From assembly GCA_003649205.1 (NCBI GenBank), contig QMRC01000017.1, positions 1 through 22,571 on the forward strand: DNA of 22,571 nucleotides, written 5' to 3'. A program made the position numbers and the translations under genes. The notes beneath the pieces are model-generated. The model did not search any database. It was not told where the DNA came from and saw nothing but the letters and a program-made list of their open reading frames with translations. Each line of letters begins with the position of its first letter. Within the stretch, counting starts at the first letter, position 1. Below are positions 4,262 to 20,052 of the stretch, piece after piece. The stretch is from Thermoprotei archaeon (GTDB taxonomy: Archaea > Thermoproteota > Thermoprotei > Thermoproteales > B15-G16).

Positions 4262-4463
4262 ACACAGCAGTAACACACGAAGCACCGCCGACAGCAAATC
4301 CCACACACAGAAGCCAACCCCTCAAGACAAAACACCTAACGACACAACGCAATGATTTTACACGAATTCCCAAGTATAACCAGTTAACAAAAAGAAAAAC
4401 CAATTAAATCATAGTGACGAACCCCCAACATAGCTCTACATAGCAGGGGGGTAGCTAGGGGTC
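4262..4463 (+). repeat. Dispersed ~200-bp repeat, copy A
   Basis: Shares CACGAAGCACCGCC, ACAGCAAA, CCCCTCAAGACAAA, GACAC, CACGA, TAACC(A/G)GTT and the CCCCC...GGGGG hairpin with copy B, and most blocks with copy C. Confidence 0.85.
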
Positions 4464-4495
4464 ATCACAGCAAACACCCCCTCAAGACAAAACTC

Positions 4496-4522
4496 TTAAA
4501 TATTGGTTAAACCGGTTAAACC
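4496..4522 (+). promoter_or_regulatory. TATA box plus tandem GGTTAAACC operator-like repeat
   Basis: TTAAATA 4496-4502, then GGTTAAACC twice (4505-4513, 4514-4522) directly before the ATG at 4523. Confidence 0.6.
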
Positions 4523-5050
4523 ATGGAGGTGAGGGGTGTGGTCTATAGGGAAACCGTACACGGGAAATATGTCCCTAAGGTGTATGGTTTGGTAATTACA
4601 CATGGCGTTAGTTACTCGGGTACAAAGGTCGGTAAACACAAGCTCATAGAGTCGAAGCTAAGACAGTGCGAAGAATGGTTTGAAGTTAAATTCGTTAGAA
4701 TTGCTCCGGGGGTCTTTGTAACCGATCGGAAATACTCAGTGAATAAGCTAAAGAGGTGCTTACAGTGGTTACAAGATGAGCTTCCCGGAATAACGGTATT
4801 CCTAGCAAAAAAGCCAAGTATTAGGGTCAAAGACGTAGAGGAAGAAGAAGTGATTCCAGTAGAACAAGCACCAAAGACAACACCAGAGAGCAAGGTAAAG
4901 AGAATAGAGCTGGAGTGGGAAGCAAAGATCACTGCTCAACACAGCACATGGTACCTAACAATACCAAAGGACGTTAAGGAAAGACTACTACAGTTAGGTA
5001 TTCAAAAAGGAAGCACAATCAGAGTAAGGTTCATAGCAAAGGTGAGGTAG
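4523..5050 (+). CDS. Two-domain protein with C-terminal AbrB/SpoVT-like DNA-binding domain
   Basis: C-terminus AKITAQHSTWYLTIPKDVKERLLQLGIQKGSTIRVRF matches the swapped-hairpin pattern (LTIPK.....LG...G..V.V). Confidence 0.7.
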   Translation: MEVRGVVYRETVHGKYVPKVYGLVITHGVSYSGTKVGKHKLIESKLRQCEEWFEVKFVRIAPGVFVTDRKYSVNKLKRCLQWLQDELPGITVFLAKKPSIRVKDVEEEEVIPVEQAPKTTPESKVKRIELEWEAKITAQHSTWYLTIPKDVKERLLQLGIQKGSTIRVRFIAKVR

Positions 5051-5383
5051 ATGGGAAGAAGGAAGAAGACTTCTACTATTTCTCTAGCAGAGATAAGAAG
5101 ACAACAGAGAAAAAGAACTGCAAGGAAACGCAGTAATCTAACATACATCACTGATACATGGAAATGCCCAAAGTGCGGTAGCTACAGACACATAGGTCTT
5201 TACGTCGTTGATTACGAACAACATATCGACAGCTGGGAAGCAACAGACATATTACTATGCATGAACTGCGGAACAGTGTACAAAGTCCGGTACCAAGTCT
5301 TCAAAAACATAGAGGATATACATTGTACAGCAATCCTAGAAAAAAGAGTAATAGGTAGATTAGATCCATCCGAATTTGCTTAA
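5051..5383 (+). CDS. Zn-ribbon protein with basic N-terminus
   Basis: CPKC...CMNC; GAGGT RBS. Confidence 0.75.
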   Translation: MGRRKKTSTISLAEIRRQQRKRTARKRSNLTYITDTWKCPKCGSYRHIGLYVVDYEQHIDSWEATDILLCMNCGTVYKVRYQVFKNIEDIHCTAILEKRVIGRLDPSEFA

Positions 5384-5811
5384 GCTTCTTTCTTTTCATC
5401 TAGCTTCTTCTTTATGTAGTTTTTCACTGCTATTGCTGATGGTTCTAGCTCTATTGTTGCTGTTGGTAGGATAACGCACACACGTATCCTGTTCTCAACA
5501 TCATCGTACACCATCACAGCTTGCTTAAACCTCTCATCAAATGTCTTTAGAGTAATGATGAAGTCGTTAAAGTCATGGAACCACAGTGTAATGTAATTAC
5601 CACGAAGTATCACAGAAGCTTTAACATCACAGTACGCATTAGCTTTAATCTTCATATCCTCGATTATTGGTTTAGCCCTCTCAAAACACTCCCTACACAT
5701 GATGCAGTTATTGAAAGCAGTGTACTCCCTAGTCATCCTACCGCAGATCAAGCACTTAGCTTCCCTCAAAGATACCATACCCACACACCAACCTAATACA
5801 GAGCAAAACAA
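5380..5811 (-). CDS. Zn-finger-containing hypothetical protein (likely start at MVSLRE)
   Basis: CLIC...CREC. Confidence 0.7.
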   Translation of the reverse strand: MFCSVLGWCVGMVSLREAKCLICGRMTREYTAFNNCIMCRECFERAKPIIEDMKIKANAYCDVKASVILRGNYITLWFHDFNDFIITLKTFDERFKQAVMVYDDVENRIRVCVILPTATIELEPSAIAVKNYIKKKLDEKKEA

Positions 5812-5906
5812 CTTATTACAGTATCAAGGACTACAGATGTACCACACTTTGTTGTACAACTTAAATACCATAGTATGTATTACACATAGAGGGGGTGTGG
5901 ATCTGT

Positions 5907-6113
5907 ATGTCACCTAGACCAAGCCAAAGAATGCAAGTAATCTGCATCTTGCTCCCACGAGACATGGTAAAGATGCTAGATCAATTAGTAGCTGAAAAGA
6001 AGTACAAGAACAGAAGCGAAGCAATAAGGGAAGCAATACGTCTATTGTTACTCTACCACACAGACATGGGGAAGCTCTACGTAAAAATGAGGAAATACGC
6101 AATGATCTGCTGA
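5907..6113 (+). CDS. Ribbon-helix-helix (CopG/NikR-like) regulator 1
   Basis: ICILLPRDMVKMLDQLV...YKNRSEAIREAIRLLL is a canonical RHH; TTAAATAC at 5861. Confidence 0.9.
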   Translation: MSPRPSQRMQVICILLPRDMVKMLDQLVAEKKYKNRSEAIREAIRLLLLYHTDMGKLYVKMRKYAMIC

Positions 6114-18050: not shown

Positions 18051-18058
18051 GTGAGAAC

Positions 18059-18655
18059 ATGATACGCATGGTAGAGATCTATCAACTGAAACCTAAACCA
18101 CGTAGAGTAGCACAAGTAGGTGAGGAACTGTTCAACGAGTACCTCGATAAAAAGAGAAGACTATTGAAAAACGATCTAGGTACTGATTGGTTTGGTAGGT
18201 TTCTAGCGTCGCTCTTCACACATGTAGGTGTAGATGATAGATTATCTTTCGAAGCCACAGCAAAGAATGGGTCAAGTTACACGATATATACAATGAAAAA
18301 TGTGAGTAATTACTCTTTTTTCAATAACACTTACTACAGTGATGTTGGGGTTTTCATTGCTGTGGGTACGTCAAATACAGCACCTACGAAGACAGATTAT
18401 GCATTAGGTAATGAAGTTGCTTGTGAACCAGCAACGAGCAAGTACAATGATGGTTCTGACTACGTTATTGTGTCAGCTTCGTTCACGCTAGCACAGGACA
18501 CGGACATCTACGAGGTCGGTCTATTCTACAGGATGAACTACTCTGTATCGTCGCCATACGTCTGTGATGTGTTGCTAGATAGGACAGTACTTGACTCACC
18601 TGTGACCTTCCCAGCGAACACACCAATGCTCGTAGCCTACAAGATCGCGATATGA
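18059..18655 (+). CDS. Tail-collar/baseplate-like beta protein
   Basis: IAVGTSNTAPTKTDYALGNEV...ASF...IYEVGLF...LLDRTV...YKI resembles phage tail-fibre N-terminal (DUF3751-like) proteins. Confidence 0.6.
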   Translation: MIRMVEIYQLKPKPRRVAQVGEELFNEYLDKKRRLLKNDLGTDWFGRFLASLFTHVGVDDRLSFEATAKNGSSYTIYTMKNVSNYSFFNNTYYSDVGVFIAVGTSNTAPTKTDYALGNEVACEPATSKYNDGSDYVIVSASFTLAQDTDIYEVGLFYRMNYSVSSPYVCDVLLDRTVLDSPVTFPANTPMLVAYKIAI

Positions 18656-18665
18656 GGTGAAATAA

Positions 18666-19439
18666 ATGAGCTGTAGGGAATGGGTAAGGATTACACCCTT
18701 AACAATACCCGGCGTACTAGAAGCACCAGACATAGGTAAGCGATTCTGGAAATTCAACTTCAGAGAACTATTCGACAGAGACTCCGAAGTCATTAGGGAA
18801 CTAGCTAAGAAACTAATGAGAGCAGAACACATCTGTAGATATATCATAGAGGAAATCAAGTACCCATTCTGGTTCGGACAACCAGACGACAAACATGTTT
18901 GGAACGCTTTCCATGGTAAGTTCTGTGTAAAGGTGAAACACGACTTCTGGCAAAAAGCAAGCGAAACCGCTGTAGCAAAGTACGGAGATTGCGAAGACAA
19001 GACAATCCTATGGGTTACATTGATGGACATGAACCTCTACAAGTGCTATGGATTCCTAGGTGTAGTCTACTACAAGGACAAACCACTAGGCGGACATGCA
19101 TGGGGGGCATTTGAAGATGAAAAAGGCAACTGGAGACTCTATGAAAGCACACTAGAGAAAGCACCAACATACCCAGAAGGATACCCAGTCATACCAGACC
19201 CAAATACAACAAATGAGTTTGAGGTAGGTAGACTACGCTACGTAGCAATAGCAAGATTCACAACAGAAGAATTCTGGTTATCAAAGAGAGGTGTAGGAAT
19301 AATGACACTCAAGGAATACCTCACACTACCACACAAGAAGAAGCACACGAGAAAGAAGATCAAGCTCATTAGGAAAGCTTGGGCAGAATACCACAAGTAC
19401 CTCATAGAGACGAAGTTGAGAGAGATGACAGGGCGGTGA
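18666..19439 (+). CDS. Transglutaminase-like cysteine protease
   Basis: WQKASET...GDCEDKTIL (Cys), GHAW (His), LYEST (acidic residue). Confidence 0.85.
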   Translation: MSCREWVRITPLTIPGVLEAPDIGKRFWKFNFRELFDRDSEVIRELAKKLMRAEHICRYIIEEIKYPFWFGQPDDKHVWNAFHGKFCVKVKHDFWQKASETAVAKYGDCEDKTILWVTLMDMNLYKCYGFLGVVYYKDKPLGGHAWGAFEDEKGNWRLYESTLEKAPTYPEGYPVIPDPNTTNEFEVGRLRYVAIARFTTEEFWLSKRGVGIMTLKEYLTLPHKKKHTRKKIKLIRKAWAEYHKYLIETKLREMTGR

Positions 19440-19443
19440 TGTA

Positions 19444-19968
19444 ATGCTCACGAGTAGAGACATAATTGCCATCATTGTCTTCCTAGGTCTTCTGATTGCT
19501 TACATAGCAGTAGCACTACTGTATGGAACAGAAGAAGCAAGAGACCTTGGGCAACTACTCACTCTAGTCACAGTCGCAATCGTAAGCTACTACCTAGGTT
19601 ACACATACAGAGAAAAGAAGCAAGTAACGACACAGCTAACAAACAAGTCAATTAATGTAAACATAGCACATGCAAGGATATCATACCTAAGACGACTAGG
19701 GTACATCAGCATAGGCTTCGGAATAGCACTGATCCTACAACATGTAGTATGTTACGGGGTAGACATCACACCACTATCAGAGCTATTGCTAGGACATGAG
19801 TGGATAGGATTGTACGCCATCATCATCGGTATGGTCATCATCGGAATGACACAGAAACGTAGCACAACAGTAACACACAACAGCAGACAAACAGCAAACA
19901 CAATTTACAGGGGTTCACCCCTCAAGACAAAGCACCCATTGACACAATGCTACGTTATTCCACGATAA
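19444..19968 (+). CDS. Multi-pass membrane protein (~4 TM)
   Basis: Four hydrophobic segments; the C-terminal ~35 aa read into repeat copy C. Confidence 0.75.
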   Translation: MLTSRDIIAIIVFLGLLIAYIAVALLYGTEEARDLGQLLTLVTVAIVSYYLGYTYREKKQVTTQLTNKSINVNIAHARISYLRRLGYISIGFGIALILQHVVCYGVDITPLSELLLGHEWIGLYAIIIGMVIIGMTQKRSTTVTHNSRQTANTIYRGSPLKTKHPLTQCYVIPR

Positions 19969-20052
19969 GAAACGTATAACCAGTTTCTCTTTTTAAAAAC
20001 CCATTAAACCATTTTTATGAAACACCAACATCACTTTACTAGCTAGGGGTCT
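19857..20052 (+). repeat. Dispersed ~200-bp repeat, copy C
   Basis: CGTAGCACAAC, ACAGCAAACAC, CCCCTCAAGACAAA, ATTGACAC, GTATAACCAGTTTCTCTTTTTAA, TTAAACCAT and TAGCTAGGGGTC are each shared with copy A and/or B. Confidence 0.85.

Follow-up and report, generated by a model that had tools for sequence, protein, structure and literature searches.

Three paralogous non-coding elements of an uncultured filamentous archaeal virus most likely mark transcription-unit boundaries

Three copies of a non-coding element of about 200-205 nt, here called A, B and C, are present on the plus strand of an archaeal virus genome and are under selection, and judging from their positions and sequence they most likely mark the ends and beginnings of the virus transcription units. 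The window, meaning the whole stretch of 22,571 nucleotides that was analysed, is the complete linear genome (22.6 kb) of an uncultured filamentous virus with an ITR of 123 nt and a gene for a rudivirus-type coat protein. The genome is matched by four host CRISPR spacers, and all four matches lie outside the elements. Within the window, Rfam 15 gave only one match at E up to 1, an sR2-like site at 2861-2916 (E=0.5).

The best extents obtained with nhmmer and the covariance model are 4255-4462 for element A, 12858-13064/5 for element B and 19858-20062 for element C. The first-pass annotation had described dispersed copies in the same orientation with an ungapped core, and this was borne out, since the three copies align in one register of about 165 nt (4264-4431, 12867-13034 and 19864-20031) and their similarity is significant by BLAST. 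With copy A as query against its own genome, B was recovered at E=1.6e-25 (76% over 156 nt) and C at E=4.9e-12 (69% over 187 nt), and no comparable match was found elsewhere in 2.07 Mb. The copies are spaced by 8603 nt (A to B) and 6997 nt (B to C), with pairwise identities of 69% (A-B), 66% (B-C) and 60% (A-C). A single 3-nt indel occurs across about 205 nt, and the conserved islands CCCCTCAAGAC, ATGATTTT.CACGA, GT.TAACC.GTT and TTAAA.CAT otherwise stand at exact spacing. The fixed distance of 57 nt reported earlier between CTCAAGAC (starting at 4321, 12924 and 19921) and AACCNGTT (4378, 12981 and 19978) holds in all three copies. AACCNGTT occurs 10 times in the window versus 2.5 expected, a count reached in 0 of 100 shuffles, and both AACCNGTT and GGTTAAACC are over-represented in the virus and scarce in the host. 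The perfect inverted repeat noticed in element B, GTTTAACCGG/CCGGTTAAAC, was located at 12977-12986 and 13003-13012 (10 bp), flanking a T-rich spacer (12987-13002); among the copies it is perfect in B only. The spacer of element A (4384-4399, 16 nt) is A-rich.

The partial fourth copy suspected earlier was found as a match at 4466-4499, within a shortened copy (4466-4522, plus strand) which occupies the promoter region of ORF175 and matches model columns 59-83 and 143-159 only. It contains the CCCCCTCAAGACAAAAC motif, a TATA-like TTAAATAT (4496-4503) and two copies of GGTTAAACC directly before the ORF175 ATG at 4523, so that the CCCCTCAAGAC motif, the TATA-like box and GGTTAAACC are linked straight to the ORF175 start. 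The 3' half of the elements is homologous to this promoter.

The element family is limited to one virus lineage. A related metagenomic contig, L134, carries A and B at equivalent positions (A' and B') and stops within element B, while no such element was found in more distant virus relatives, including the complete, ITR-bounded genome of the relative L126. No copy turned up in the host assembly (2.07 Mb) or in 61 further genomes from the host's order, and none of the Rfam 15 covariance models matched at the elements (up to E=1). A CRISPR leader, repeat or mini-array was rejected after the host repeats were examined, as the element profile matches nothing in the host genome. The first-pass annotation had named a non-significant alignment, a decayed coding fragment and a MITE as outcomes that would overturn its description; each was tested and none was found. 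No terminal inverted repeats or target duplications of a miniature mobile element were seen on reading the ends, and the host assembly and the 61 further genomes hold no copies. A protein-coding fragment or gene remnant was likewise rejected, with element B lacking a start codon and B of L134 containing an in-frame TAG. Ortholog changes fall 6/2/9 over the codon positions (p=0.11), showing no significant three-base periodicity, and paralog-variable columns fall 16/15/16 (p=0.98). The first 111 nt of element C are read as a 36-residue tail of ORF174 (stop codon 19966-19968), and this tail is present in only one of the 10 aligned relatives (10 of the 15 found), namely the 88%-identical one.

Selection is evident from the distribution of ortholog substitutions over columns 1-167, where 5 of 176 paralog-invariant cells are changed versus 20 of 152 variable cells (Fisher p=0.0006). 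Overall, the elements differ by 12-13% between the two viruses, which is no lower than the divergence at four-fold sites of the genes near B (7-15%), indicating that the constraint is limited to the conserved islands.

Two helices were identified on the plus strand. P1 pairs 4255-4261 with 4348-4354 in copy A, where it closes an 86-nt C/A-rich loop, 12858-12864 with 12951-12957 in copy B, where ATTTTT directly follows the 3' arm, and 19858-19864 with 19948-19954 in copy C, where 7/7 pairs are Watson-Crick; the arm sequences differ between A and B/C. P2 is a hairpin of C5 with G6 at 4422-4451 in A and 13025-13053 in B, and these are the CCCCC...GGGGG stems recognised at first sight (4422-4426/4446-4451 and 13025-13029/13048-13053). 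In C, P2 takes a weak form (20022-20057), with ACACC (20022-20026) opposite GGGGT (20046-20050), and an alternative hairpin, GGGG-TCTA-CCCC, lies at 20046-20057. The regions 3' of P2 are unrelated among A, B and C. Pairing is retained in both helices through compensatory changes, including a full C5/G5 to G5/C5 swap in P2; the arms of copy A are exchanged to G5/C6 in L134 and in runs X4 and X5, with the loop orientation kept. Over five sequences (three paralogs in two viruses, which are related and hence not independent), 91.7% of the paired cells can pair on the plus strand versus 76.6+-3.9% in shuffles (0/500 as high), and 7 pairs are altered on both sides versus 2.7+-1.2 expected (0/500 as high). 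Slid controls pair at only 35-48%, and no P1-like helix arose in 400 column shuffles. The helices exist on the plus strand only, because they contain G-U pairs. The earlier suggestion of a structured nucleic-acid family therefore stands with respect to two helices with compensatory changes, but the supported pairing is sparse (12 bp per ~205 nt) and energetically weak: P1 (7 bp, 86-nt loop) and P2 show no folding advantage over shuffles (z from +0.5 to -2.3, and from +0.5 to -1.9 in a second set), and their stability would be marginal at the temperatures expected for the host.

All three full copies and the short copy lie at junctions of gene blocks. Element A is located in the divergent intergenic region between a minus-strand operon (ORF87, 3967-4230) and plus-strand ORF175, with no plus-strand operon upstream. 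Elements B and C sit behind plus-strand operons. B begins at the ORF72 stop codon (TAG, 12860-12862), which falls within the first P1 arm, and the 3' end of C meets the stop codon of minus-strand ORF117 (20051-20053), so that C runs up against the 3' end of a convergent gene, with no plus-strand gene lying downstream of it. Both B and C carry T5 tracts (at 12959 and 12993 in B; at 19990 and 20012 in C, with A5 at 19995), and none is present in A or in A' of L134; the contig parallels the window, with T5 tracts in a T-rich B' and an A-rich A'. Between 10.4 and 20.13 kb (9.7 kb), nine plus-strand tracts of T5 or longer were counted: four inside B and C, three no more than 70 nt past B or C, one in the coat-protein/GT1 intergenic region and one in a gene. 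Between element B and the ORF96 promoter, an imperfect small hairpin followed by T5 (13095-13118, with T5 at 13114-13118) is probably the final terminator of the operon upstream of B. The putative promoter of the ORF96 operon (13135-13178, plus strand) consists of the ACCCCCTAAACCC motif and then TTAAAACC (13171-13178), whose end lies 24 nt upstream of the GTG start at 13203; the other putative promoters of the virus share cTTAAATAc, ending 21-32 nt upstream of the start codon. Since this separate promoter exists, element B is not required as the promoter of the ORF96 operon. L126 contains a single copy of the 13-mer GTTTCTCTTTTTA from the T-rich core of B and C, versus 0.01 expected (present in 2/200 shuffles); it lies 155 nt past the last gene of the structural block (late operon), on the same strand as the block and flanked by an inverted repeat which differs from that of the window.

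From these features, it is tentatively proposed that the elements are lineage-specific terminator/promoter boundary cassettes between transcription units, acting partly as plus-strand RNA. The 5' half would present a C/A-rich stretch enclosed by P1, next a U-run, and then the T-rich core between AACCNGTT and TTAAAC motifs; where the elements close plus-strand operons (B and C), the U-run and the T-rich part may serve as an oligo-T terminator zone. The 3' half, with the T-rich core, the GGTTAAACC-type box, CATAG and P2, would be the counterpart of the ORF175 promoter and may initiate a short RNA led by a hairpin, or alternatively a viral regulator may bind it to either side of the TATA-like core. 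Termination, initiation, action at the RNA level and any protein partner are thus what we infer for the elements from sequence. A pure terminator/promoter role does not explain A, because A lies in a divergent region and lacks an upstream plus-strand operon and, like A', a TATA-like core, yet keeps P1 and P2 through compensatory changes. A promoter role would also be redundant in B and C, because B precedes a separate promoter and C has no downstream plus-strand gene.

Other explanations were weighed against the proposed cassettes. Stand-alone small RNA genes, in which the T-rich core of B and C would serve as TATA box for an RNA of ~90-100 nt that starts near 13022 or 20019 with P2 and ends at the next T5 (13114 or 20104), antisense in copy C to the 3' end of ORF117, are unlikely. 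The homology of the core to the TATA region of the ORF175 promoter and the survival of the P2 stem through a complete arm swap would fit such genes, as would the B candidate (13021-13120), which folds as three hairpins with a T5 end (-30.9 kcal/mol, z=-1.6). However, fold z-scores are non-significant, an Rfam match is absent, A and A' have no TATA-like core, the sequences past P2 are unrelated, and P1 with the conserved 5' half would fall outside the RNA and be left unexplained. It is similarly improbable that the elements are double-stranded operator arrays, their islands being bound by a viral regulator such as ORF175 or the ribbon-helix-helix protein encoded at 5895-6113, which would co-ordinate or insulate the flanking units. 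Exact island spacing with one 3-nt indel, selection on the islands, the enrichment of AACCNGTT and GGTTAAACC and the presence of a ribbon-helix-helix gene agree with operators, and so do the palindromic arms that flank the TATA-like core, as is typical of archaeal repressor sites. Duplex sites of one protein would nevertheless not be expected to show compensatory changes in P1 and P2 or arms that differ between A and B/C, and the inverted repeat around the core is perfect in B alone.

Single-strand initiation signals are quite unlikely. A plus strand displaced from the left end would fold at P1 and P2 as recognition features and recruit complementary-strand priming, with the unpaired C/A-rich loop as landing pad for a primase or loader, dividing the genome into segments of 4.3, 8.6, 7.0 and 2.5 kb. 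Known single-strand origins are far more structured than these elements, whose 12 supported pairs are very sparse; in addition, no replication protein was recognised in the virus, the complete ITR-bounded relative L126 lacks the element, and the T-tract pattern tracks transcription context. There is also no significant likeness to the ITR (shuffles scored as well in 9-13/300 cases for A and C and 115/300 for B). Internal origins or packaging signals, as first suggested, are accordingly unsupported, and element positions and T-tract content follow the transcription-unit layout instead. What speaks for single-strand signals is that all copies use one strand whatever the context (divergent, tandem or convergent), that the pairing is strand-specific, and that SIRV2, a related rudivirus, uses strand-displacement replication with extensive single-stranded DNA, as described in the accessible part of the source (PMC5062984). 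Old duplicates of a single intergenic region, or copies of a miniature mobile element, in either case decaying and functionless, are highly improbable and already disfavoured. The copies are just 60-69% alike, the family is confined to one lineage and overall ortholog divergence is near the four-fold-site level, but ortholog substitutions avoid paralog-invariant columns (p=0.0006), pairing was kept by compensatory changes after the split of the two viruses, and neither terminal repeats or target duplications nor copies in the host or other genomes were found.

Exchange among the element copies, suggested at first from mosaic sharing, is plausible from sequence comparison, though retained ancestral states account for some of the mosaic just as well. 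In L134, the hairpin loop of B is like that of A and not like that of B in the window, and the A variant present in runs X4 and X5 was linked to B on the left side by the aligner. A block common to the window and L134 stops at the left edge of element A, where identity breaks from 99% to 87%; no such break was seen at element B in runs X2 and X3.

Cis-regulatory and structured non-coding sequences of archaeal viruses are little known, especially in uncultured rudivirus relatives infecting Thermoproteales, and the elements offer a compact case with three paralogs plus orthologs, clear conserved islands and two covarying helices. They may reveal the means by which such viruses keep operons insulated and swap gene modules. 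If they act as folded single strands in replication, they would give a new view of how these linear genomes are copied, and would be the first sites for lagging-strand priming (sso/ssi analogues) known from an archaeal virus.

Rolling-circle plasmids and ssDNA phages have single-strand origins and initiation signals that are likewise non-coding, ~150-300 nt long and orientation-dependent, and act folded; those origins are heavily base-paired, in contrast to 12 supported pairs in the elements, for which a replication role is putative. In the nut/put-type antitermination sites of lambdoid phages, a conserved linear motif is joined to a hairpin of variable stem sequence; like the elements, these sites are repeated, cis-acting and located in transcripts at operon boundaries. 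They are bacterial, whereas the elements are archaeal-viral, and we know of no antitermination system in archaeal viruses. The intergenic repeats of halovirus HF2 (58 and 29 bp), which demonstrably bear promoters according to the accessible part of the report (PMC8707807), are alike in belonging to an archaeal virus, in their dispersed intergenic positions, which are conserved in related viruses, and in their AT-rich promoter-like cores. As described there, the HF2 repeats precede transcription units, a reading contradicted for the elements by C, without a downstream plus-strand gene, and by B, which lies before a separate promoter; unlike the repeats so described, the elements show compensatory pairing. 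Promoter-early stem-loops (PeSLs), the composite terminator/promoter motifs of T4-like phages (PMC4122927), have no sequence relation to the elements, which are several times longer (~205 nt), number only three copies, possess a long-range helix that encloses an unpaired C/A-rich stretch, and involve a TATA-type promoter and oligo-T termination as expected of an archaeal host, with both activities being putative here. As far as the accessible part of the source describes them (PMC4122927), PeSLs and the elements are alike as small, repeated, same-orientation intergenic cassettes with terminator- plus promoter-type parts, located between gene modules and proposed as exchange points of related genomes.

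The window is contig C17, taken whole, of a 31-contig, 2.07-Mb archaeal assembly. Perfect inverted terminal repeats (ITRs) of 123 nt, in which TTGTT/AACAA-like words are abundant, occupy positions 1-123 and 22449-22571, which shows the linear genome on this contig to be complete; an inverted pair, TTTAGGGG(G) and CCCCTAAA, lies inside each ITR. CRISPR arrays are present on host contigs C11, C1 and C4, and virus and host are linked since four spacers of the host's own arrays, of two repeat types, match the virus at 88-100% identity (9063-9105, 4899-4948, 17625-17671 and 16295-16346). 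The ORF at 10025-10393 encodes a coat protein of the rudivirus/lipothrixvirus family (PF12193, E=4e-9) with weak matches to solved filamentous-virus coat proteins (3j9x, E=4e-4; 6wq0, E=9e-4), and further genes encode a group-1 glycosyltransferase, a methyltransferase, a phosphodiesterase, a ribbon-helix-helix protein, a Csx3 homologue and a 1087-residue coiled-coil protein. The ITRs, the spacer matches and the coat protein with the other gene content therefore show that the window holds, in full, the linear genome of an uncultured archaeal virus of filamentous type; the phage collection contained no isolated virus that was alike in DNA or coat protein.

The viral Csx3 homologue (7555-7974, plus strand; Pfam Cas_csx3, E=1.8e-17; AF_1864 structures, E about 1e-9) is a candidate ring nuclease, which would blunt type III CRISPR signalling. 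The 1087-residue protein has internal repeats at 13868-14364 spaced at multiples of 33 nt, and its coiled coil gives rise to matches with tape-measure-type profiles; in the related viral contig L126, a large structural protein homologue of 1498 residues (6213-10709, minus strand) has 3-4 tandem 444-nt repeats and four 120-nt repeats. At 2861-2916 (minus strand), in the 2591-2914 gap, the C/D-box sRNA family sR2 was matched weakly and below threshold (21.8 bits vs a gathering score of 42; E=0.5).

Three plus-strand paralogous elements were delimited in this genome, with best extents of 4255-4462 (A), 12858-13064 (B) and 19858-20062 (C), and they align in a single register with one 3-nt indel in all. 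A BLAST comparison of A with the whole assembly returned B (E=1.6e-25), C (E=4.9e-12) and no other match of weight. The 57-nt spacing in three copies, the perfect inverted repeat in B and the C5/G6 hairpin stems described in the first-pass annotation were all confirmed, and the partial fourth copy that it had claimed is present (4466-4522, plus strand). In an informal comparison, the 16-nt spacer of A matched the B/C spacers at 11 of 16 positions as reverse complement and at 4 of 16 in direct orientation; an inversion in A is not claimed, since composition alone makes a run rich in A resemble the reverse complement of one rich in T.

Divergence of the elements is 31-40% among paralogs and 12-13% among orthologs (A and B against A' and B', their counterparts in the related contig L134), the latter being close to the four-fold-site divergence of the genes near B (7-15%). 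Over columns 1-167, ortholog substitutions fell in 5/176 paralog-invariant cells vs 20/152 variable cells (p=0.0006). On the plus strand, pairing is maintained in two helices. P1 (7 bp) joins columns 1-7 to columns 94-100 around a stretch of 86 C/A-rich bases; its arms are CATTGTG/CGCAATG in A and CGTAGCA/TGCTA(T/C)G in B and C, and one pair is exchanged between A and A', from G-C to A-T. P2, the terminal hairpin, is C5/G6 in A, B and B' and G5/C6 in A', with the loop orientation unchanged, and this arm swap is not an assembly error, since it is found in L134 and in the A copy of public runs X4 and X5.

For P1 and P2 together, 91.7% of plus-strand cells were paired vs 76.6±3.9% in shuffles, none of 500 reaching the observed value, and 7 pairs were changed on both sides vs 2.7±1.2 expected (0/500 shuffles), a covariation resting on five mutually related sequences only. 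Slid controls paired at 35-48%, and column shuffles yielded a P1-like helix in 0 of 400 cases and two covarying helices in none. P1 is plus-strand-specific because of its G-U pairs and was not recovered on the minus strand, for which RNAalifold proposed more pairs, yet these carried a positive covariation term and left many cells broken. Both helices fold no better than shuffles, and P1, whose 7 bp enclose a loop of 86 nt, would be of marginal stability in a thermophile if no protein held it. As for other candidate structures, a C/D-box RNA was rejected as the elements lack box D, a tRNA-like structure as ARAGORN found no tRNA, and an R-loop origin as the pairing is on the wrong strand.

The C/A-rich 5' half contains few stop codons, and all three copies in the window share one open frame, which in C forms the final 36 residues of ORF174. 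A decayed coding fragment, which the first-pass annotation had raised against its own interpretation, was checked via frames, codon positions and ORF174 relatives and is ruled out: B has no start codon in the shared frame, B' has an in-frame TAG there, counts over the three codon positions are 6/2/9 for ortholog changes (p=0.11) and 16/15/16 for paralog-variable columns (p=0.98), and nearly all aligned ORF174 relatives are tail-less. Ten of the 15 relatives found were aligned (P0005, P0007, P0010, P0013 and P0016 were left out); nine of these stop 2-14 residues past the last membrane helix, and the 36-residue tail is found among the ten only in P0002 (88% identical). The tail is therefore the product of translation continuing into element C. 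P0002 is encoded on a 21.4-kb contig that probably carries further element copies.

A profile HMM and a covariance model found five copies only (A, B, C, A' and B'), and none in the host genome, in a further 61 genomes of its order or in the related viral contigs L126, L133 and L136-L139; Rfam gave no match at the elements. L134, a closer relative than L126, is a 9.5-kb metagenome contig colinear with window positions 3287-13029 at 72-97% identity, with A' and B' at the corresponding places and B' cut by the contig end. L126 is a complete genome with its own ITRs and a coat protein 88% identical, and it contains no element copy and no comparable dispersed repeat. In viral contigs, a 14-mer scan gave chance matches only (loci L005 onward, set aside), stricter pattern scans of viral and genome contigs were empty, and protein-guided scans returned nothing with ORF347 or ORF175 in viral contigs or with the coat protein in genome contigs; a distant-mode search of the phage collection with B gave only chance matches in bacterial phages (E 0.2-0.7). 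Variants of the virus are present in contigs of four other public runs, and the B region in X2 and X3 is identical to the window. None of the four matching host spacers targets the elements, and a CRISPR link through a 26-nt match in host contig C23 was rejected, as it falls in an ordinary gene outside any array. The elements form a genuine non-coding family that is under selection and specific to this virus lineage.

In addition, the block at 3945-4250 (ORF87) is 99% identical to L134 841-1144, with 0/25 four-fold sites differing. Because the flanks are only 75-87% identical, this comparison indicates a putative recent recombination tract, which would end at the left edge of A.

Element A separates plus-strand ORF175 from a conserved operon on the minus strand (ORF87, ORF58). 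B begins at the ORF72 stop codon and is followed on its 3' side by a hairpin with T5 (13095-13118), after which comes the putative promoter that belongs to the ORF96 operon itself (13135-13178), while C overlaps the end of ORF174 and touches the stop codon of convergent ORF117, its T5 followed by A5 providing oligo-T on both strands at this junction. Plus-strand tracts of T5 or longer seldom occur inside genes: among the nine across 10.4-20.13 kb, four are inside B/C, three are ≤70 nt behind them, one is in the coat-protein/GT1 intergenic region and one is in a gene. T5 tracts are absent from A and A', in which the 16-nt spacer is rich in A. L126 contains a single occurrence of GTTTCTCTTTTTA, the 13-mer of B and C (0.01 expected; found in 2/200 shuffles), 155 nt behind the last gene of the structural block and on the same strand as the block, between inverted arms different from those of the elements. 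The best supported assignment is that the T-rich core of B/C belongs to putative terminator zones of the two long operons on the plus strand.

In the short fourth copy, which aligns to the model at columns 59-83 and 143-159 only, the CCCCTCAAGAC motif, a TATA-like TTAAATAT and a pair of GGTTAAACC boxes lie immediately upstream of the ORF175 start; the element's 3' half is of a putative promoter type. The other putative promoters of the virus have cTTAAATAc in common, ending 21-32 nt upstream of start codons.

Other short repeats were also observed. ACCCC(C)TAAAC occurs at 66-80, 8738-8752 (minus strand), 8776-8790 and 13135-13147, in both ITRs and adjoining the TATA-like boxes of three promoters, with only two occurrences in the 2-Mb host. 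A third repeat, TAAACCAGT(T/C)AT(T/C)TTA..., has an AACCAGT core in common with the elements and occurs as two tandem copies in the 2591-2914 gap (2708-2737 and 2760-2789) and once within the ORF at 21776-22447 (22093-22122). The more distant relative L138 has a dispersed 45-nt repeat with a TTATATAC core (612-656, 2408-2452, 2792-2836 and 12049-12093), probably a promoter repeat. Host mimicry of the viral motifs was looked for and not seen, and a host promoter model based on roughly called gene starts yielded no signal that could be used.

With a T-rich core in putative terminator zones and a promoter-type 3' half, the whole element resembles a terminator/promoter boundary cassette, in which P1 would act as RNA-level pairing in the 3' untranslated part and P2 at the start of any downstream transcript. 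Copy A is without an upstream plus-strand operon and without a TATA-like core, yet P1 and P2 are kept. This is left unexplained by the boundary-cassette reading, which is therefore held only tentatively, somewhat short of even odds, with rival readings still standing.

Small RNA genes are an unlikely interpretation of the elements, and the probability of operator arrays is similarly low. A third rival, single-strand replication signals, is kept alive because the rudivirus SIRV2 replicates through long single-stranded intermediates (PMC5062984); the likeness of the elements to ITRs or origins is not significant beyond C/A-rich composition and the related L126 does without them, so that this reading is quite improbable and the internal origins proposed in the first-pass annotation lose ground.

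In the main texts of the open-access literature, no description of such elements in filamentous archaeal viruses was found. The nearest published kinds are the PeSL motifs of T4-like phages, composite terminator/promoters that are also genome exchange points (PMC4122927), and, in halovirus HF2, the intergenic repeats that bear promoters (PMC8707807). The elements share their kind with the PeSLs but differ in sequence, size and architecture, and the same holds for the HF2 repeats as described there. The elements fall under a known kind, the dispersed regulatory intergenic repeats of viruses, with a putative regulatory role here.
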